NCBI GenBank assembly: GCA_013151235.1
Contig: JAADIO010000055.1
Coordinates: 39,743-103,742, forward strand
Length of the DNA: 64,000 nucleotides
Direction: 5' to 3'
Source: Deltaproteobacteria bacterium
GTDB lineage: Bacteria; CG2-30-53-67
Within the stretch, counting starts at the first letter, position 1. The number at the start of each line of letters is the position of its first letter. Shown here piece after piece: positions 8,151 through 35,444 of this stretch. Under the pieces are notes generated by a model that worked only from the letters and a program-made list of their open reading frames with translations, made no database searches and was not told the origin of the DNA. The position numbers and the translations under genes were made by a program.

Positions 8151-8629
8151 GAGAGACAGCGTCCTTTCCGGTTGAGAGGTTGCCGGAGGAAGCCCCGCCT
8201 TTGCAGGGATTCCTCCGGTTGGGGGAGGTGTGAGATGGGTACTTGATGAGAAATTTGGAAACCGGAAGTTTCCCTTCCCCTCAAGGGTCCATGTCCTCTT
8301 CTCCTTTTCCTCTTTCCATTAGAGCAAATCCCATGCCAAGGGGGAACCCACTCCGAGGAGAAGACACCCGGACGATCTTACCGAAACGATGAATTTCTCC
8401 GTTCTTCAGAATGTTACAGGAGAATGGCAAGGAGGTGGACAAAAGAAAAAGAAGCGCAAAGGAATTCCTCTGTTCCAAAAACGAATGCGGGGAAGGGAGA
8501 AATTACCCCGGTGATTGCGGTAATTTTTCCCAGTCCATTTCCCGGCCGAAGGCCATTCGCAATCCGCTCCGCTTTATGTTAGAGTACTTTTCGGAAGAGA
8601 AACAACAATCACCGTAAACAAGGGAAACC

Positions 8630-9583
8630 ATGCAGCTTCGGATCGGACACCTGTCCACCTTTTATCACACATCGATCCTGCTGATGGCCGATCCGGAAAC
8701 CCCGGCACGCCTCGGCGTGGAAGTAGAATGGAAACTCTTCGGCACCGGCCCCGCAATTGTCGAGGCCTTCCGGACCGGTGAAATCGATCTGGCTTATATC
8801 GGCCTGCCTCCCGCCATGATCGGGATCGCTTCAGGAGTCCCTATTCGATGCATCGCCGGCGGACACATGGAAGGGACCGTGATCGTCGGGAATGTCGCCC
8901 ACCGGGACTTTGGCGATACCCACGAACTCGGCAGGATCATGGAGCAATTCCGGGGGAAAACAATCGGCGTTCCCGGCACCGGGTCCATCCATGACGTGAT
9001 CCTCACCGACACCCTCGATCGTTTCAACCTGGCGGACACGGTGCAAACAGTTCACTTCCCCTGGGCGGACGAATTAATGGAGGCGATGTTCCGGGGAGAG
9101 GTGGCGGCAGCCTTCGGGACACCGGCCCTGGCCGCCGCACTGGCCCATTACGGAGAGGGAAAGATCCTCTATCCGCCCCGCCTCCTCCGGCCGGAGAACC
9201 CGAGTTACGGCATCGTTGCGGAGATCTCCTTCCTGCAAAGGGAGGCGGAGATTACGGAGCGGTTTCTTCGACTCCATGAGGCGGCCACCGAAAGACTCCG
9301 AACCGATCCTTCCGGAGCGGCAAAAATTCTCTCCACCTTTATCGGTTTCATTGATGAAGCACTCGTACTAGAAACCCTGAAGATCTCTTCCCGTTACTGC
9401 GCACAGTTGACGGAAGGATACATCACCTGTACCCTAAGTTTTGCCGAAACCCTGAAACGGTTGGGCTACATTGAACGGACGTTACCGGAAAAGGAGATCT
9501 TCGACACCACCTTGATCAAAAAGATTCATGGTCCGGGAGATCACTACGGAGACGATGCTGTAAGGAGAGGACAAACTTCATAG
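8630..9583 (+). CDS. NMT1/THI5-like or MqnA/MqnD/SsuA-type periplasmic-binding-fold protein with no obvious signal peptide
   Basis: MQLRIGHLSTFYHTS...LAYIGLPPA pattern of the PBP-fold NMT1/SsuA superfamily. There is no N-terminal hydrophobic segment. Confidence 0.5.
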   Translation: MQLRIGHLSTFYHTSILLMADPETPARLGVEVEWKLFGTGPAIVEAFRTGEIDLAYIGLPPAMIGIASGVPIRCIAGGHMEGTVIVGNVAHRDFGDTHELGRIMEQFRGKTIGVPGTGSIHDVILTDTLDRFNLADTVQTVHFPWADELMEAMFRGEVAAAFGTPALAAALAHYGEGKILYPPRLLRPENPSYGIVAEISFLQREAEITERFLRLHEAATERLRTDPSGAAKILSTFIGFIDEALVLETLKISSRYCAQLTEGYITCTLSFAETLKRLGYIERTLPEKEIFDTTLIKKIHGPGDHYGDDAVRRGQTS

Positions 9584-28323: not shown

Positions 28324-29109
28324 CTACAGCTTGGGTCCGTTCTCGGAATAGAGGCTTTGATGGAAGTGCCGGGCAAAGCTCATGACAAAGAGGAGACTCT
28401 GCCGAACCTCGGGATCCCGGGCCGCTTTCCAGAGGGCCGGCAGCCCGGCCTTCTTCGGCTGATCTTTCATCTCCGCCATCGCTTCCTGTGCACTTTCCAC
28501 CGCCGCACCGATCAGGTCTTGAATCTGGGGGTTCATAAGACGGCTCACCAGATTCTCAAACATGCTCAACATCCGCTCGACGATGCTGTCGGTAAAGGCA
28601 TGCGTCGTCGAACCGAGAAACGTCGCCATCTGAGTCAGGACTTCCAGACTACCACTGTTAATCAACTCCTCAATCGCCGGCATCGCCCGCATTAGGTCCG
28701 CTTTTGCCAGTTCATCCAACAGGGCCATCATCGTTTCCATGTTTGCAGCCATCCGTGCAATGACGCTGTCTCCCATGGAGTTTTTGGCCGCACTGATGAA
28801 GAGGGCCACCTCCTTGAGATCATTCAGAGAGCCACTTTGGTACAACTCCGTCAGGGTCCGGACTGATTGCTGCACGGCCTGAAAGACTTCGGGCTTCGCC
28901 ACCTGATCGGCCAGAGCCGTCAGGGGCTCCATGATCGCGGCCATCCGCTCGATCATGGGGTCGGTTTGTGAATCCTTGTAGGCCTGAATCGCCCCGGCGA
29001 CCTCCGACAGAGTCTCCGCATGGTTCCGGAGACCATCGATGGAATTCGAACCGGCCTGCATCATCGTCGGTAGATCCGGTTCCCGTAGCTCTTTATTCTG
29101 CATGGACAT
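28324..29109 (-). CDS. DUF1641 domain protein
   Basis: Helical protein of ~260 aa encoded immediately downstream (14 bp) of an SQR-like flavoprotein, which is the usual genomic partner of DUF1641. Confidence 0.65.
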   Translation of the reverse strand: MSMQNKELREPDLPTMMQAGSNSIDGLRNHAETLSEVAGAIQAYKDSQTDPMIERMAAIMEPLTALADQVAKPEVFQAVQQSVRTLTELYQSGSLNDLKEVALFISAAKNSMGDSVIARMAANMETMMALLDELAKADLMRAMPAIEELINSGSLEVLTQMATFLGSTTHAFTDSIVERMLSMFENLVSRLMNPQIQDLIGAAVESAQEAMAEMKDQPKKAGLPALWKAARDPEVRQSLLFVMSFARHFHQSLYSENGPKL

Positions 29110-29123
29110 ATCGTGCCTCCCTC

Positions 29124-30263
29124 TCAGAGTATGCCCCGAGCGCTTAACCAGTAAAGGCGGTTGTAGGCCAGTTTGAACCAGTGAATCATCTGAGACGGCT
29201 CCCCGGGATTGGGCGGCGTGTTGTAGTTGAACCAGACATAGGTCCCCTCCTCGAGACTGGTTTCCACGAAGCAGAAAACCTTTCCGTCATATCGGCGCCC
29301 CGGGCATCCCTCTTTAATCATGCAGATCAGTGATTCCGCAACGGTGTCGGCCTCGAAGTGGGCGGTCGATCCTGCCTTACTGATGGGAATATTGGTGGTG
29401 TCCCCCACCACAAAGACATTCTCCTTCCCTGCCATGGTCAGGCTGTGCTTATCCGTCGGGATCCAGCCGTCGGCGCCGAGGCCGGATTCTTCAATAAGGG
29501 GCATACCCTTGTGCGGGGGCACAGCAATGAGAAGGTCATAGTCCAGCGTGGATCCTTCCTCGCTGTGAATCTGCTTCTTCAGCGGATCGACCTCCTTCAT
29601 GTTGAAGAAGGTTTCATACCGGATTCCCCGACGTTCGAAGGCCTTGACCGCCCACTGGGCAACCGGCTCCAGGACATGGACCCGGGCAATGGGATAGGTA
29701 TAGAAGAGTTCGTACTTCTCTTTCAGACCGTTTTGGGAGAAAAGGTCGTCGAGCATGAAAGTGACTTCCAGGGGCGCCACGGGACACTTATGGGGAACAC
29801 CGACGGAAACGACAATCCGCCCCCCCTCAAACTCCTTCAACGCCTTCCGGAGTTTTTTGGCTCCGGCAAGATCATAGAACCAGTGCGCGCCCTCCTTGAG
29901 GCCGGGGACTTCCTCGGGGACAATTCTGGAACCGGTGGCAATGACCAGGTAGTCGTAAGGGAAGGACCTTCCGCTCTGCGCCGTGACCGTCTGACTCTCG
30001 GTGTCGATCTTCACGGCAGGGTCGACGTAGAGGTTGATCAGCGGGTCGAGGAGCCCGCGTTGATCCCGGATAATCTCATCGTCCTGCATCCGGCCAAAGG
30101 CGACGTAGAGAAAACCCGGCTGATAGACATGTTTCTCCGAAGCGCTGAGCATGTTGACGGTGACCTCTCCGCTGCGCAACTCGGTCCGCAAACCCCGGGC
30201 CAGCAGGTTGGCGACAATCGTCCCGCCTGTCCCCCCTCCGATAATAACGATACGCTTTCCCAT
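29124..30263 (-). CDS. sqr: Sulfide:quinone oxidoreductase-like NAD(P)/FAD-dependent disulfide oxidoreductase
   Basis: MGKRIVIIGGGTGG FAD-binding N-terminus (start set after the GAGAGGAGG SD), second nucleotide-binding motif VFVVGD, and conserved Cys residues. Confidence 0.8.
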   Translation of the reverse strand: MGKRIVIIGGGTGGTIVANLLARGLRTELRSGEVTVNMLSASEKHVYQPGFLYVAFGRMQDDEIIRDQRGLLDPLINLYVDPAVKIDTESQTVTAQSGRSFPYDYLVIATGSRIVPEEVPGLKEGAHWFYDLAGAKKLRKALKEFEGGRIVVSVGVPHKCPVAPLEVTFMLDDLFSQNGLKEKYELFYTYPIARVHVLEPVAQWAVKAFERRGIRYETFFNMKEVDPLKKQIHSEEGSTLDYDLLIAVPPHKGMPLIEESGLGADGWIPTDKHSLTMAGKENVFVVGDTTNIPISKAGSTAHFEADTVAESLICMIKEGCPGRRYDGKVFCFVETSLEEGTYVWFNYNTPPNPGEPSQMIHWFKLAYNRLYWLSARGIL

Positions 30264-30402
30264 GCGATGCCTCCTCTCTGACGGCGTTTCCGACCCACCG
30301 TCCATTCAGGCCACACGCTTCATTCAGATCCGGCTCCTTCTGCGATTCTCTCCCCGGGCCGGCCCCGGAATCCGCAAGATGGAGCCCCCTTTATGAGATC
30401 AT

Positions 30403-30639
30403 CTATTTAACTTTCTTCACCACGATGCTCCAGAATCCATCCTTTTCTTCGGCGCCGAGATACTCCTGCCCCACTTTGTGGATCCACTCCGGAATGTCTT
30501 TGGCGGACCCTTGGTCGGACGAGAGGACTTCGATCACCGTACCGACCGGTTCGCTCTTCATCATGCGGATCAGTTCCATCAGCGGTCCAGGACAGTAGGA
30601 ATCCCGTGCATCCACACTCTTGTCAATGGTCAGATTCAT
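30403..30639 (-). CDS. tusA: TusA-like sulfurtransferase
   Basis: 78 aa with the CPGP active-site motif (YCPGPLMEL). Confidence 0.8.
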   Translation of the reverse strand: MNLTIDKSVDARDSYCPGPLMELIRMMKSEPVGTVIEVLSSDQGSAKDIPEWIHKVGQEYLGAEEKDGFWSIVVKKVK

Positions 30640-30665: not shown

Positions 30666-31070
30666 CTAAAGATTGATAATATTATACCCTTCTGCGTCCA
30701 CGAGAAACTTCGTCATCCCTGCGACTTCGTCGAAGACGTCCTCCTCAAGGTCCGCCTCCGTCATACCGAGTACCTCCATCGCCATGGGACAGGCATAGAT
30801 CTTTGCCGCACCGAACTCCCGTGCCTGCCGGAAGAGATCGAGATAGGGGGGAACCTTCTTCGCTTGCAGGACCTTTGAAAAATCCGCCCCGGAGAAACGT
30901 TCTTCGTCACCAATCCCCTTCCGGAACTTCCGAATCGCCCCCATAGAGACGAAGAGCAGGACCTCAATCCCGGACACGGCCGCCACCGAGGCAATCATGC
31001 CGGCAAGCTGAACCTTTACATAGTCCTCGGATGAGAGGATGATTGCGATCTTTCTTCCCTCTGCCGTCAT
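30666..31070 (-). CDS. dsrE: DsrE/DsrF-like sulfur relay family protein
   Basis: 134 aa with a DsrE-like fold signature (IAIILSSEDYVKVQLA...YACPMAMEVLG, conserved Cys). Confidence 0.75.
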   Translation of the reverse strand: MTAEGRKIAIILSSEDYVKVQLAGMIASVAAVSGIEVLLFVSMGAIRKFRKGIGDEERFSGADFSKVLQAKKVPPYLDLFRQAREFGAAKIYACPMAMEVLGMTEADLEEDVFDEVAGMTKFLVDAEGYNIINL

Positions 31071-31130
31071 AAGCCCTCCTTACGCAACCCCTGGAATCTT
31101 TCCATCCTTTGCCTTCCTCCCTGTTAAAAA

Positions 31131-31145
31131 GCAAAGGAGATGCCA
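31131..31145 (-). promoter_or_regulatory. Sigma-54 (-24/-12) promoter upstream of dsrE-tusA-sqr-DUF1641
   Basis: Minus-strand sequence TGGCATCTCCTTTGCT matches TGGCAC-N5-TTGCW with exact GG/GC spacing. It lies about 60 bp upstream of the dsrE ATG. Confidence 0.6.
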
Positions 31146-31324: not shown

Positions 31325-32671
31325 TTATTCTTTCTGTTCCAGTTTCCTGTAGAGCGTCGCCAGACTGATCCCAAGTCGTTCCGCCGCTTTCTGCTTGTCG
31401 CAGCCGGACCGTTCAAGAACCCCTTCAATATGCATCCTTTCGTAAACCCGGAGTGCGCTTTTTAGATTTTCTCTGGAGAGGGTCTCGGAGCGGCGATCCC
31501 CCTCCAGGAGATTCGGCGGCAGGTCTTCCGGTTGCAGCGTGGGAGGCGTCCCGAGAATCATGCTTCGTTCCATGACATTTTCCAGTTCCCGGATATTGCC
31601 TTTCCACCGGTACCCGGACAGAACCCGCAGAACCTCCGGGGAGACATCCCGGAACCGGCGGTTCATTTCAAGATTGTACTTCCGAATAAAATGATTGACC
31701 AACAGAGGGAGATCATCGATCCGCTCCCGCAATGGAGGGACCTTGATCTCTACAATATTGAGCCGATAGTAAAGATCCTCCCGGAAGGTCCCGGCATTCA
31801 TCCGCTCCTGAAGATCCTGATGGGTCGCTGCGATGAGACGGATATCAACCTTGACTCGTTCCGTCCCTCCCACAGGCAGGATCTCCTTTTCTTCAATAGC
31901 CCGAAGGAGCTTGGTCTGGAGCCCAACGGAAAGGTCCCCTATCTCATCGAGAAACAGGGTCCCCTCGTTAGCGACCTCAAAGAGCCCCTTCCTGTCTTCC
32001 TGCGCATCGGTGAAGGCCCCCTTGCGATAGCCGAAAAGCATGGAATCAAGGAGGGTCGCAGGAATGGCACAACAATTGACGGGAATGAACCGTTTCGCCC
32101 GCCGGTCACTCCTGTTGTGAATAGCCCGGGCCACTAATTCCTTGCCGGTCCCGCTCTCCCCCGTAATCAGGACAGTCCCCTTGGAAGAGGCCACCCTTTT
32201 GATCAATTCCAGCATCTCCCGAACCGGTTGAGACTGCCCGATAATATCGGAGAAATCGTATCGGCCTGCGACCTCTTCCCGAAGGAGCCGGTTATCCTCG
32301 GTCAGGTCGGTGAGTTGAAACAGCTTTTTGATCCGGAAGACGACGTCATCCAGGAGAAAAGGTTTGATGATGTAATCCACCGCACCCTGCCGCAGGGCCT
32401 CCACCGCCGTATCGACGGAAGCATAGGCCGTCATCATGACCACCGGCGTGCCGGGCCGGGAGGTCTTAATCCGTCGGAGCAGATCAATCCCGTTTATGCC
32501 GGGCATCCGAATGTCGCAGATGACGGCATCGAAAGCAATGCGATCGAAGAGTGTCGAGGCCTCATCTCCGTCGGCCGCCGTCACCGGGCTGTATCCTTCC
32601 TCGGCAAGAACCGACGACAGGGATTCCCGGATGGTTGTCTCATCATCAACGATAAGAATTTTCTTTGACAT
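31325..32671 (-). CDS. Sigma-54-dependent Fis-family response regulator (NtrC-type: REC + AAA+ + HTH)
   Basis: N-terminal REC domain (ILIVDDE...D at the phospho-site), GESGTGKE Walker A, GAFTGA-type region and a C-terminal HTH. Confidence 0.9.
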   Translation of the reverse strand: MSKKILIVDDETTIRESLSSVLAEEGYSPVTAADGDEASTLFDRIAFDAVICDIRMPGINGIDLLRRIKTSRPGTPVVMMTAYASVDTAVEALRQGAVDYIIKPFLLDDVVFRIKKLFQLTDLTEDNRLLREEVAGRYDFSDIIGQSQPVREMLELIKRVASSKGTVLITGESGTGKELVARAIHNRSDRRAKRFIPVNCCAIPATLLDSMLFGYRKGAFTDAQEDRKGLFEVANEGTLFLDEIGDLSVGLQTKLLRAIEEKEILPVGGTERVKVDIRLIAATHQDLQERMNAGTFREDLYYRLNIVEIKVPPLRERIDDLPLLVNHFIRKYNLEMNRRFRDVSPEVLRVLSGYRWKGNIRELENVMERSMILGTPPTLQPEDLPPNLLEGDRRSETLSRENLKSALRVYERMHIEGVLERSGCDKQKAAERLGISLATLYRKLEQKE

Positions 32672-32677
32672 CTTCCC

Positions 32678-33847
32678 TCACTCCTGTCGACTGCAACTCA
32701 ATTCCAGGGGAAGGAAAACCCGGAAGGTACTCCCTTTCCCCGGACAACTTTCAACTTCAATTCTACCACCGAGACTTTCCATAACACCGTAGCTGATAAA
32801 GAGTCCCAGCCCCGTGCCGCGTCCCACGTCCTTGGTGGTGAAAAAGGGCTCAAAGATCTTCGGCACAATCTCGGGAGGGATCCCCGTTCCCGTATCTGAA
32901 ATTTCGATGACGACCCATTCCCCGGCCCGGCAAGTCTCTAACGTCAGGGTTCCCTCTCCCTCCATAGCATCGGCGGCATTGATCATCAGGTTCATCAAGA
33001 CCTGCAACAGGGAATCACGCACCAGTTCCAGCGGGGGGAGCTTAGGATCAAAGTCGGTGACGATCCGAAGCCCGGCGGCCGTCTGGTTGTACTTTAGAAA
33101 AGCCAGCGCATTCTCCAGGACCTCCCGCAGATTCACCCGCTCCGTCCCTTTCCGGGCGGGCCGGGAAAAATCGACCAACTCCCGTACGATCCCTGAAATC
33201 CGGTTGATATGGGTCAGGATCGATGCCAGCCTTTCTTCGTTCCCGGGATCATCGATCCTGCGCCGGATCAATTGAACCAGCGTGGAGATCGAGGCAAGTG
33301 GATTCCCCACCTCATGCGCAATCCCCGAAGCCAGAAGCCCCAAGGCGGCCATCTTCTCCTGGTGAACAAGTTGAGCCTGGGATTCCCGGAGCTGAAGCGT
33401 CGCTTCCCGTACCCGTCTCTCAAGTCTCCGTTCGGCTTCCAGAATCTGTTCCATTTTCCGGTCCAGACTGAACATCATATCATTGAAGAGTTCCCCCATC
33501 TTGTCGGTGGGATTCTTCGTCGCCGCCTGAAAAACTTCACATTGCCGACAATCCTCTAATGGGTGAACCCGATTATGAGAGGGGGACTTCCCACAGTAGG
33601 TCCCGGCAATCTGCCAGCAACGGAGATTGGCGGACTGATAGGCAGGACAATCCTGTCGGAAGCACCGGGTCATCTCCCAACACCGAAGGAGACGGGGATT
33701 TTCGAAGCGGGTCTTAAAATCCCGGCTCTGTTCCGCCTCAAAAAAGAGGCGGCCCAATTCCGTGGTCAGCCGTTCGAACTCCGTCTTGCAATCCTTCAGT
33801 TCCTTCAGCTCCGCCCGCAGATTACGGACGTTCTCTTCTCCTGCCAT
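32678..33847 (-). CDS. Soluble sensor histidine kinase with an N-terminal cysteine-rich domain
   Basis: HEVGNPL H-box, N/G1/G2 boxes (GTGLGLFIS) and no TM segment. The N-terminal region carries 7 Cys (C-x5-C-x4-C-x9-C-x7-C-x14-C-x2-C). Confidence 0.85.
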
Positions 33848-35444
33848 GGCATTCCAACCCCTCCATCCCCAGTAAAGACAATACACAATATACCCCATCC
33901 AGGGCGGAGCTGACAATTCCCCCGGCATAGCCGGCCCCCTCCCCTAAAGGATAGAGACCTCTCACCGTCACTGAGGCGTAATCCTTTCCCCGGACAAGCC
34001 GTACCGGAGAAGAGGTCCGGGTCTCCACACCGATCAGGATTCCGTCCTCGGAGATAAAACCGGGAATTTTCTTCCCCCAGACCCGCAGCGCCCCCTTGAG
34101 CCCCGTCGTCACAAAATCGGGCAACACTGCGTGGAGGTCACAGGAGTAGACCCCCGGCCGGTAGGTCGTTTCCGGAAGACTGGACGAAACAGTCCGCCTC
34201 AGAAAATCAGTAACCCGCTGTGCCGGTGCGGAGTAATTCTCTCCCCCCGCTCGAAAGGCCGCCTCCTCCCACTTTCTCAGAAAGGCAAGACCTGCGAGAG
34301 GCCCCCGGCCCGAAAAGTCCTCCCTGCGAACCGATACCACCAGACCGCTGTCGGCATAGCCGCTTGCCCGGCCAAAACGGCTCATGCCGTTGGTGACGAT
34401 CCGACCCGGCTGAGAATTAGCTGCAATCACCTGCCCGCCGGGACACATGCAGAAGGTATAGACCCCGCGATCCTGTTTACGATCCCGGTAGGTTAAACGA
34501 TAACGGGAGGGACCGAGCCTCGGATGACCCGCCCACCGGCCATATTGAACCCGGTCGAGCCTCCCCTGGGGATGTTCAATCCGGACTCCGACGGCCAAGG
34601 GCTTTTGTTCCATCGCGACGCCGGCCCGCTCCAGAACGGCATAGGTGTCTTCCGCCCCATGGCCTGTTGCCAAAACGAGCCGGTCCGTTTCAATTTTTTC
34701 CCCGTTCTCCAACCCAAGACCACACAACCGGCCATTCTTCACAAGAATTCCGGTCATCCGGCTTCCAAAACGGACTTCGCCCCCGAGAGACTCAATCTCT
34801 TTTCGCAGGGCAACAATCACGCCCCGAAGCCGGTCGGTCCCAATATGAGGATAGGCCTCGTAGAGAATTTCCGAAGGTGCCCCGGCTTTTACAAATTCGG
34901 AGAGAAGCCAGGGAATCATCGCCGACCGTTTTCCCGTGGTCAGTTTTCCGTCGGAGAAGGTCCCGGCCCCTCCCTCTCCGAAACAGACGTTGCTCTCGGA
35001 CCGGAACACCCCCTTCGACCAGAAGGTGGAGACATCCCGGACCCGTTCCTGCATGGGACGTCCCCGTTCAAGAACGATCGGCTCCGCCCCCGCCCGGGCC
35101 AGGAGAAGGGCGGCGAAGATCCCGGCGGGACCAAAGCCGACGACGACCGGCCTTTTATAAAAACTTTTCTTGTGAAGTACGAAAGGCGGCCCCGGAGGCA
35201 TCACGATTTCGGCCGAAATACCTTCTTTTTCTCTGATGATCTTGAGGAGTTCTTCTTCCCCATCCGCGGAAATTTCAACCGTATAGAGAATGCGAACATC
35301 GTGACGTGCATCAATGGAACGTTTCAGAATGTGGAGGGAACGGATCCGGCCGGAGGGAATGTGGAGAAGGTCGGCCAGCACATCTTTCAAATCCCTGCGA
35401 TCTTCGTCAGGAGTGAGCCGAATTTCTCGAATTGAAAAAGGCAT
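33822..35444 (-). CDS. Uncharacterized FAD-dependent dehydrogenase (COG2509-like)
   Basis: VVGFGPAGIFAAL dinucleotide-binding motif and the overall ~540-aa COG2509 architecture. Confidence 0.7.
   Translation of the reverse strand: MPFSIREIRLTPDEDRRDLKDVLADLLHIPSGRIRSLHILKRSIDARHDVRILYTVEISADGEEELLKIIREKEGISAEIVMPPGPPFVLHKKSFYKRPVVVGFGPAGIFAALLLARAGAEPIVLERGRPMQERVRDVSTFWSKGVFRSESNVCFGEGGAGTFSDGKLTTGKRSAMIPWLLSEFVKAGAPSEILYEAYPHIGTDRLRGVIVALRKEIESLGGEVRFGSRMTGILVKNGRLCGLGLENGEKIETDRLVLATGHGAEDTYAVLERAGVAMEQKPLAVGVRIEHPQGRLDRVQYGRWAGHPRLGPSRYRLTYRDRKQDRGVYTFCMCPGGQVIAANSQPGRIVTNGMSRFGRASGYADSGLVVSVRREDFSGRGPLAGLAFLRKWEEAAFRAGGENYSAPAQRVTDFLRRTVSSSLPETTYRPGVYSCDLHAVLPDFVTTGLKGALRVWGKKIPGFISEDGILIGVETRTSSPVRLVRGKDYASVTVRGLYPLGEGAGYAGGIVSSALDGVYCVLSLLGMEGLECHGRRRERP

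Follow-up and report, generated by a model that had tools for sequence, protein, structure and literature searches.

A 64,000-nucleotide stretch of a Deltaproteobacteria bacterium genome (GenBank assembly GCA_013151235.1, contig JAADIO010000055.1), which we call the window, encodes on its minus strand a soluble histidine kinase whose sole candidate input domain is a module with seven cysteines placed ahead of the kinase core. On profile evidence, this module is a kinase-embedded relative of a family already catalogued in NCBIfam as the "two-CW domain" (NF045718), and the kinase is a new member of that family. We read the protein, with about an even chance of being right, as a cytoplasmic two-component kinase in which the two-CW module, as the only input, would relay redox or metal–thiol state to an NtrC-type partner and from there to a dsrE-tusA-SQR-DUF1641 operon (SQR, sulfide:quinone oxidoreductase).

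The kinase and its seven-cysteine module

An earlier note, made from the letters of the window, had placed the kinase gene at 32678–33847. The reading frame proved real, and we add the strand, minus, which the note had left unstated. The translation is 100% identical to a 389-amino acid protein deposited at NCBI from a metagenome-assembled genome (MAG), "hypothetical protein GXP58_10480" of a Deltaproteobacteria bacterium. A start further out, within the open reading frame that extends to 33928, was disfavored, as the ATG at 33847 fits both the 389-residue NCBI protein and the N-termini of the orthologues. The kinase is soluble, as had been claimed, with no predicted transmembrane segment and a maximal 19-residue Kyte–Doolittle mean of 1.01. 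Its catalytic part has what is expected of a class I histidine kinase, namely the H-box histidine, the N, G1, F, and G2 boxes, and both Pfam domains above their cutoffs; H178 is nearly invariant in the family alignment A6, and N290, D318, G320, G322, G344, G346, and G348 are conserved. The best NCBIfam matches of the kinase core are AtoS and ZraS. The AtoS/AtoC and ZraS/ZraR systems provide the top-scoring NCBIfam models for both the kinase core and its partner regulator, but no score comes near its equivalog cutoff, and their input domains have no relation to the two-CW module.

The spacing C-x5-C-x4-C-x9-C-x7-C-x14-C-x2-C, reported previously for the N-terminal part, is exact, with cysteines at residues 56, 62, 67, 77, 85, 100, and 103; the last of them lies 65 residues before the HisKA domain, close to the distance of about 60 residues given before. 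The module is indeed unlike PAS, GAF, Cache, or NreB, in that Pfam returned no match on residues 1–156. For an Fe–S PAS kinase of the NreB type in particular, there was no PAS match and the cysteine spacing differs from C-x2-C-x11-C-x2-C. Other Pfam families, including cysteine-rich and zinc-finger ones, were rejected, as residues 1–156 scored nothing better than E 0.04. With respect to the known persulfide sensors CstR, SqrR/BigR, and FisR, the Pfam and NCBIfam searches of the kinase gave no CsoR-like, ArsR-like, or FisR-domain match.

The profile searches and structure prediction that the earlier note had proposed for this region yielded a family match and a confident AlphaFold2 (AF2) model. 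An NCBIfam scan of residues 1–156 gave a single match, NF045718, over residues 55–111 (E 5.5e-8); at 33.1 bits, it falls slightly short of the curated cutoff of 35 bits. Nine other family segments from diverse relatives likewise matched only NF045718, at 26–45 bits, and four of the nine passed the cutoff. The window kinase carries RCWEMTRC and the second CW motif, and its seven cysteines are ordered as in P0273 and its relatives; P0273, 97 residues long and listed at NCBI as a "two-CW domain-containing protein" (Candidatus Odinarchaeota archaeon), is retrieved reciprocally by the A2 profile at E 1.1e-7. The module is therefore not uncatalogued, but belongs with a widespread, generic signaling module. 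The family is named yet uncharacterized: our literature searches found no publication on the two-CW domain or NF045718, and a broader keyword search returned nothing relevant. The NF045718-type module has no Pfam model and no relative in the PDB by sequence, profile, or fold. While the kinase-embedded form shares with NF045718 both CW motifs and the same seven cysteines in order, its Cys2–Cys3 loop is short (x4) compared with x12–14 in the stand-alone NF045718-type proteins, and it adds an RFxNPxL lead-in and a GE.FNNMM output helix.

The AF2 model of the domain has a mean predicted local distance difference test score (pLDDT) of 87.9 and a predicted template modeling score of 0.79. Its cysteine region is mostly coil, which we read as typical of metal knuckles. 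In the full-length AlphaFold model (pLDDT 88.9), the core at residues 42–112 is mostly non-helical, with three short helices and a hairpin. Foldseek found no PDB match to the domain model at E<=10, and its BFVD matches appeared only at E>=8; a sequence search of the PDB gave only a chance match (E 0.17) and a profile search none at E<=10. The loop between Cys5 and Cys6 (residues 86–98, 33563–33601, minus strand) is the least confident part of both AF2 models. In the window protein, the GGxVQGxFAxK sequence that the family has in this loop is replaced by a stretch with two histidines; these histidines are not found even in the orthologue with 76% identity.

Conservation and distribution of the two-CW family

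We searched 1.84 billion representative proteins (50% identity clusters) with A1, a 13-sequence profile of the module, and obtained 1,510 matches at E<=1e-3, 633 at E<=1e-10, and 65 at E<=1e-30. In 165 copies of the domain, drawn from the 150 top-scoring cluster representatives, the seven cysteines are 97–100% conserved, as are the R-C-W and G-T motifs and the E-x-F-N motif of the downstream helix. This conservation, together with the number of profile matches, argues that the seven cysteines are not a product of chance. The family thus comprises at least 1,510 clusters, mostly multi-domain signaling proteins of organisms known only from MAGs.

An optional eighth cysteine (CPCYG versus CPAYG) occurs in about 46% of the copies; otherwise the position is occupied by Ala, Ser, or Val, and the window protein is of this latter kind. 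The residue that follows Cys1 varies with it: copies with the eighth cysteine have Tyr (59%) or Trp (18%) there, whereas Trp accounts for 89% in copies without it. This covariation suggests a variable fourth position near a putative Cys1–Cys3 site. A compensating His or acidic ligand was sought in the members that lack the eighth cysteine and none was found, the only change being the Trp/Tyr switch beside Cys1.

In a set of 54 full-length family proteins taken from genomes, HATPase_c (46), HisKA (45), and PAS (37) domains are the most frequent, followed by HAMP (14), REC (13), and GAF (10), with Cache, Hpt, GGDEF, or HD in a few. Where domain positions were read (L006, P0082, P0091, P0099, and P0138), the module sits between the sensor and the output domains, and short distances from the motif to the phospho-acceptor histidine fit the same placement family-wide. 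The window kinase and its orthologues represent the minimal architecture of coiled coil, two-CW module, and kinase.

Tandem two-CW modules occur within single proteins (P0003, P0004, L024, and L031), and at six loci of Nitrospirota MAGs (L051, L060, L065, L066, L071, and L073) genes for two-CW histidine kinases stand side by side in twos or threes. There are also stand-alone two-CW proteins of 79–120 amino acids, which have the longer Cys2–Cys3 loop and are devoid of the flanking helices. Two related ones among these, of 91–97 amino acids (L087, 5001–5294, and L091, 3618–3893; one of them from Ca. Odinarchaeota), are encoded between two FrhB/FdhB-like genes and genes for HdrD-like (CCG), HdrA-like, and FlpD proteins; three other stand-alone genes have unrelated neighbors. 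As the sole non-catalytic domain of the window kinase, as tandem duplicates, and as stand-alone proteins, the module behaves as an autonomous input module.

A genome distribution scan limited to two peptide patterns placed the family in MAGs of Thermodesulfovibrionia, other Nitrospirota, Desulfobulbia, Geobacteraceae, Thermoleophilia/Gaiellales, and Phycisphaerae; a single genome often carried several paralogues. The source samples were mostly groundwater, deep-subsurface, and hydrothermal. The taxa that carry the module are known mainly as anaerobes.

Helical coupling of the module to the kinase

The module is flanked by predicted helices on both sides. In the AF2 model, one unbroken helix spans residues 113–197 and runs through His178. 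When the A2 profile was aligned by hhalign with the HAMP domains of related kinases, only the C-terminal helix (residues about 108–137) aligned, with the second HAMP amphipathic sequence (AS2; probability 72%, E 3.4e-5). The distance from the end of FNNMM to the H-box histidine falls into three heptad series (32/39/46/60/67, 34/41, and 52/59/73) in 133 of the 135 family kinases, and such heptad-stepped spacing reads as the signature of a phase-preserving coiled-coil linker. Taken together, the AS2-like helix, its continuity in the model, and the heptad linkers imply that the module would be coupled mechanically to the dimerization and histidine phosphotransfer (DHp) domain, as HAMP and S-helix modules are.

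Membership of HAMP itself was rejected: PF00672 gave no match even at E<=10, the first amphipathic sequence (AS1) was unmatched, and only the AS2-like helix aligned. Like HAMP (PF00672), the two-CW module is placed directly before the first DHp helix and has heptad-phased linkers, and GELFNDMM here corresponds to DEIxxLAxxFNxM of AS2. By contrast, where HAMP would have AS1 and the connector, this module has its seven-cysteine core, which is some 60 residues long and mostly non-helical.

The N-terminal helix carries an additional cysteine, Cys20 (codon 33788–33790, minus strand), 36 residues before Cys1 (C-x35-C). This cysteine is present in nine of the 11 module copies of the window's clade, including second copies in tandem-module proteins, whereas the rest of the family lacks it. 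By our reading, Cys20 lies roughly on the hydrophobic 3–4 repeat of the helix, so that an inter-subunit disulfide or polysulfide bridge could form.

The partner regulator and the adjacent operon

The ATG of the regulator gene follows the kinase stop codon by 6 nucleotides, and the kinase is thus predicted to be translationally coupled to this NtrC-type regulator, in which the REC, sigma-54 AAA+, and HTH_8 domains were all found. Behind the regulator, the 254-nucleotide intergenic region before the dsrE-like gene contains a sigma-54 promoter-like element, TGGCATCTCCTTTGCT. The only other sigma-54-like motif with a single mismatch in the window is TGGCATGGGATTTGCT, at 8323–8338 (minus strand).

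The earlier note had pointed to SQR, TusA, and DsrE neighbors, and these adjoin the kinase–regulator pair as a genuine TusA (CPGP, Cys16), a DsrE-like protein (Cys94), and a homologue of type III SQR. On the other side of the kinase, the gene for a flavin adenine dinucleotide (FAD)-dependent protein overlaps the kinase start, and the two are probably co-transcribed.

We compared seven kinase–regulator loci, namely that of the window and L001, L002, L083, L084, L085, and L086. The six orthologous kinases are 58–76% identical to the window kinase, and the regulators 64–81% (five loci with distinct gene content). The kinase–regulator pair is present in all seven loci and the FAD gene lies upstream in six, L086 being the exception; upstream of the FAD gene are ahcY, metK, a phosphoribosyltransferase gene, and an rpoD-like gene. 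Downstream, sulfur genes follow immediately in three of the seven loci (the window, L001, and L086). The L001 operon begins with the gene for a three-heme cytochrome c and further encodes a pair of YeeE/YedE-type proteins along with a Psr/Phs-like molybdoenzyme and its Fe–S and NrfD subunits; L086 resembles it, likewise beginning with a three-heme cytochrome c gene and containing YeeE/YedE-type transporters. L083 has cytochrome b genes and a seven-heme cytochrome, and L085 a seven-heme cytochrome c and a cytochrome b561-type protein, neither with sulfur genes. In L002 and L084 an M56 peptidase gene follows, with ThiS/ThiF/DsrE/TusA genes farther along in L002. Sulfur-gene adjacency is therefore not a conserved property of the system, and the sulfur link is only local.

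L001 has the identical 16-mer TGGCATCTCCTTTGCT behind its orthologous regulator (8990–9005, plus strand), set in about 70 nucleotides of conserved sequence; there it precedes the operon with cytochrome c, YeeE, and Psr-like genes, as opposed to dsrE-tusA-SQR in the window. Good sigma-54 motifs occur downstream of the regulator in five of the seven loci, with similar motifs in L083, L085, and L086. From this arrangement, the system most likely controls its adjacent operon, which would be a respiratory or a sulfur-trafficking module and not always a sulfur one.

What the two-CW module may sense

The two-CW module very probably holds a metal, as Fe–S or Zn, in view of its seven invariant cysteines, its coil-rich yet confidently modeled core, and the Cys-Pro at Cys3; a Cys-Pro of this kind is ferredoxin-like. 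We weakly favor Fe–S over Zn on account of the variable ligand position, the subsurface and hydrothermal matches in anaerobe taxa, and the stand-alone forms in Hdr/Frh-like gene clusters. In our favored reading, the module, some 60 residues long, is spliced between the N-terminal coiled-coil helix and the HAMP-AS2-like helix that continues into the phospho-acceptor helix. A change at the metal or thiol center, which might be oxidation or reduction, loss of the cluster, or a thiol modification including persulfidation, would repack the helices and thereby shift the balance between kinase and phosphatase activities. The phosphoryl group would then pass to the co-translated NtrC-type regulator, and the regulator would activate the sigma-54 promoter in front of dsrE-tusA-SQR-DUF1641, activation being our presumption as to the direction of regulation. 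The most likely signal would be the redox or reduced-sulfur status of the cell and not a particular sulfur compound.

Several observations weigh against this reading. The regulator has GAFTDA at residues 218–223 in place of the canonical GAFTGA loop; GAFTDA is found in six of the seven orthologous regulators and GTFTDA in that of L001, so that the G-to-D change is common to all seven. Two of the seven loci have no good sigma-54 motif, and an inverted-repeat upstream activator site was sought in the promoter region of the window and not found. Most family members have bona fide PAS, GAF, or Cache sensors upstream of the module, and the two-CW domain could therefore be a passive transmitter. The Cys5–Cys6 loop, conserved elsewhere, is divergent and modeled with low confidence in the window kinase. 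The metal sites themselves, most simply one of three cysteines and a further ligand (C56/C62/C67 plus X) and one of four cysteines (C77/C85/C100/C103), are inferred. Finally, the bias of the family toward anaerobes is suggestive, given that it derives from the two-pattern scan combined with the lifestyles of the taxa.

The main rival explanation, which we regard as rather unlikely, is that the module is a structural Zn module that serves only in transmission or dimerization as a substitute for HAMP, with the signal supplied by a partner (the FAD-dependent VP0956-like protein, for example) or, in other family members, by upstream domains. The module always stands immediately N-terminal of the output helix, with its AS2-like character and heptad-phased linkers, and most family members already possess PAS, GAF, or Cache sensors, all of which would suit a transmitter. 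The overlap of 26 nucleotides between the FAD gene and the kinase start, and the presence of the FAD gene upstream in six of the seven loci, would suit a partner-derived signal. However, L086 has no FAD gene, and the upstream synteny (rpoD-like gene, metK, ahcY, and the FAD protein gene) may just reflect the relatedness of the genomes. A mere transmitter is also at odds with the stand-alone two-CW proteins, which have neither helix nor kinase and of which two are encoded in redox gene clusters, and with the tandem duplication of the module. Moreover, a Zn(Cys)4 site with a purely structural function would not usually vary at one of its metal positions, as the module does. The earlier note had held that a sensing role would fall if the module turned out to be a known structural zinc ribbon with no ligand-dependent change in kinase activity. 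Being a structural zinc ribbon does not discriminate between the alternatives, however: PerR is reported to sense sulfane sulfur by persulfidation at its structural Zn site (PMC9952342).

Somewhat less likely still is a dedicated sensor of sulfane sulfur or sulfide, in which the cysteines of the module, possibly with a Cys20 pair across the dimer, would be persulfidated or bridged by polysulfide and thereby induce DsrE, TusA, and SQR. The earlier note had proposed a candidate redox or sulfane-sulfur sensor, with cysteine-based sensing by persulfidation, Fe–S, or Zn. A dedicated sulfane-sulfur sensor is not favored, because orthologous pairs adjoin cytochrome or M56 peptidase genes. In the window, the sulfur operon lies directly behind the sigma-54 promoter-like element. 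Sulfur-related genes also accompany other pairs, with the YeeE/YedE-type transporters in L001 and L086, the Psr/Phs-like molybdoenzyme in L001, and the ThiS/ThiF/DsrE/TusA genes farther downstream in L002. The restriction of Cys20 to the window's clade, including the second tandem copies, also fits such a sensor, and sigma-54-dependent control of sulfur genes has precedents in FisR (PMC7315123) and TspS/TspR (PMC6335251). Against these points, the domain is generic, occurs as many paralogues per genome, and is combined with PAS, GAF, and REC domains; the pairs of L083 and L085 stand beside cytochrome genes and those of L002 and L084 beside an M56 peptidase gene; and the module has no homology to any known persulfide sensor. 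Because the domain is so generic in its distribution and orthologues stand beside cytochrome operons, a general redox or metal–thiol sensor is the likelier of the two.

That the module is a functionless chance stretch rich in cysteine, or the product of a mis-called reading frame, has practically no probability, as the kinase core is canonical and in a continuous frame, an identical protein exists at NCBI, orthologues are 58–76% identical, and the invariance of the cysteines over hundreds of diverse homologues already refutes it.

Several known systems resemble parts of the one in the window. In NreB, AirS, FNR, and ArcB, a kinase or transcription factor receives information on oxygen or redox state from a cytoplasmic cysteine cluster. 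The two-CW module differs from these in having no PAS fold, another cysteine spacing, and no detectable homology by Pfam or PDB searches. In Acidithiobacillus, the sox-II cluster is preceded by TspS/TspR, a two-component system that depends on sigma-54 and likewise consists of a ZraS/ZraR-like kinase and an NtrC-type regulator directly upstream of a sigma-54-driven sulfur-oxidation operon (PMC6335251). However, sensing by TspS has been modeled in the context of periplasmic thiosulfate metabolism (reviewed in PMC6335251), whereas the kinase described here is cytoplasmic with a two-CW input; the target of TspS/TspR is Sox, whereas the putative targets here are DsrE, TusA, and SQR. FisR, a sulfide-responsive activator of sqr/pdo operons, is similar in the sigma-54-dependent induction of an SQR-containing operon (PMC7315123), but it is a one-component regulator with neither a kinase nor a two-CW domain. 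By analogy, these two systems would have their logic in common with that of the window, but not the sensor.

Beyond this kinase, we suggest tentatively, and at a probability clearly short of even, that two-CW domains constitute a new class of metal-cluster sensor for redox state or reactive sulfur. The cluster would probably be Fe–S with one open or variable fourth ligand, in a fold unlike solved structures, and the HAMP-like output would gate kinases or cyclases in many bacteria from subsurface and hydrothermal MAGs and in some archaea; C20 of the window's clade may tune the sensor to sulfur or respiratory control. If the domain does sense redox state or sulfur, this would account for the way in which many uncultured bacteria of the subsurface change over between respiratory modules linked to sulfur and those linked to cytochromes. 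The minimal kinase, with its adjacent sigma-54 regulator and a conserved promoter as read-out, offers a practical entry point to the ligand and the signal of the domain.

Features of the locus

Table 1. Features of the kinase locus, in window coordinates
Feature	Position	Strand	Basis or remark
Histidine kinase gene, 389 aa, soluble, NtrB/AtoS-like core	32678..33847	minus	Translation, Pfam, identical NCBI protein
N-terminal helix, residues 2–41, carrying Cys20	33725..33844	minus	AF2, pLDDT 85–97
Two-CW module per alignment A1, residues 42–131 (RFxNPxL lead-in, 7-Cys core, GE.FN.MM helix)	33455..33724	minus	Alignment and AF2
Seven-cysteine core, residues 56–103 (CWEMTRC...CRQC, both CW motifs)	33539..33682	minus	Cysteines invariant family-wide
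Predicted HAMP-AS2-like and signaling helix, residues 113–168, continuous with DHp helix 1	33344..33511	minus	hhalign, AF2
HisKA (DHp), phospho-acceptor His178 (IAHEVGNPL), residues 169–229	33161..33343	minus	Pfam PF00512, E 1.1e-11, 45.1 bits
HATPase_c catalytic domain, N/G1/F/G2 boxes, residues 277–382	32702..33019	minus	Pfam PF02518, E 3.9e-28, 98.6 bits
NtrC-type sigma-54-dependent response regulator (REC, AAA+, HTH_8)	31325..32671	minus	Pfam domains
Sigma-54 -24/-12 promoter-like element TGGCATCTCCTTTGCT	31130..31145	minus	Motif scan; ~60 nt before the dsrE-like ATG
DsrE-like sulfur-carrier gene (Cys94), first of putative target operon	30666..31070	minus	Pfam DrsE_2, DsrE
TusA sulfurtransferase gene (CPGP, Cys16)	30403..30639	minus	Pfam TusA, E 1.7e-18
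Type III sulfide:quinone oxidoreductase homologue	29124..30305	minus	NF049943, E 3.9e-101, below cutoff
DUF1641 protein, last gene of putative operon	28324..29109	minus	Pfam PF07849
FAD-dependent protein, uncharacterized VP0956/3NLC family	33822..35444	minus	Stop overlaps kinase start by 26 nt

The best PDB matches of the SQR homologue are SQR/SQOR structures (E 3e-29). Its best NCBIfam model is that of the selenoprotein subtype of type III SQR, with a score under the cutoff of that model.

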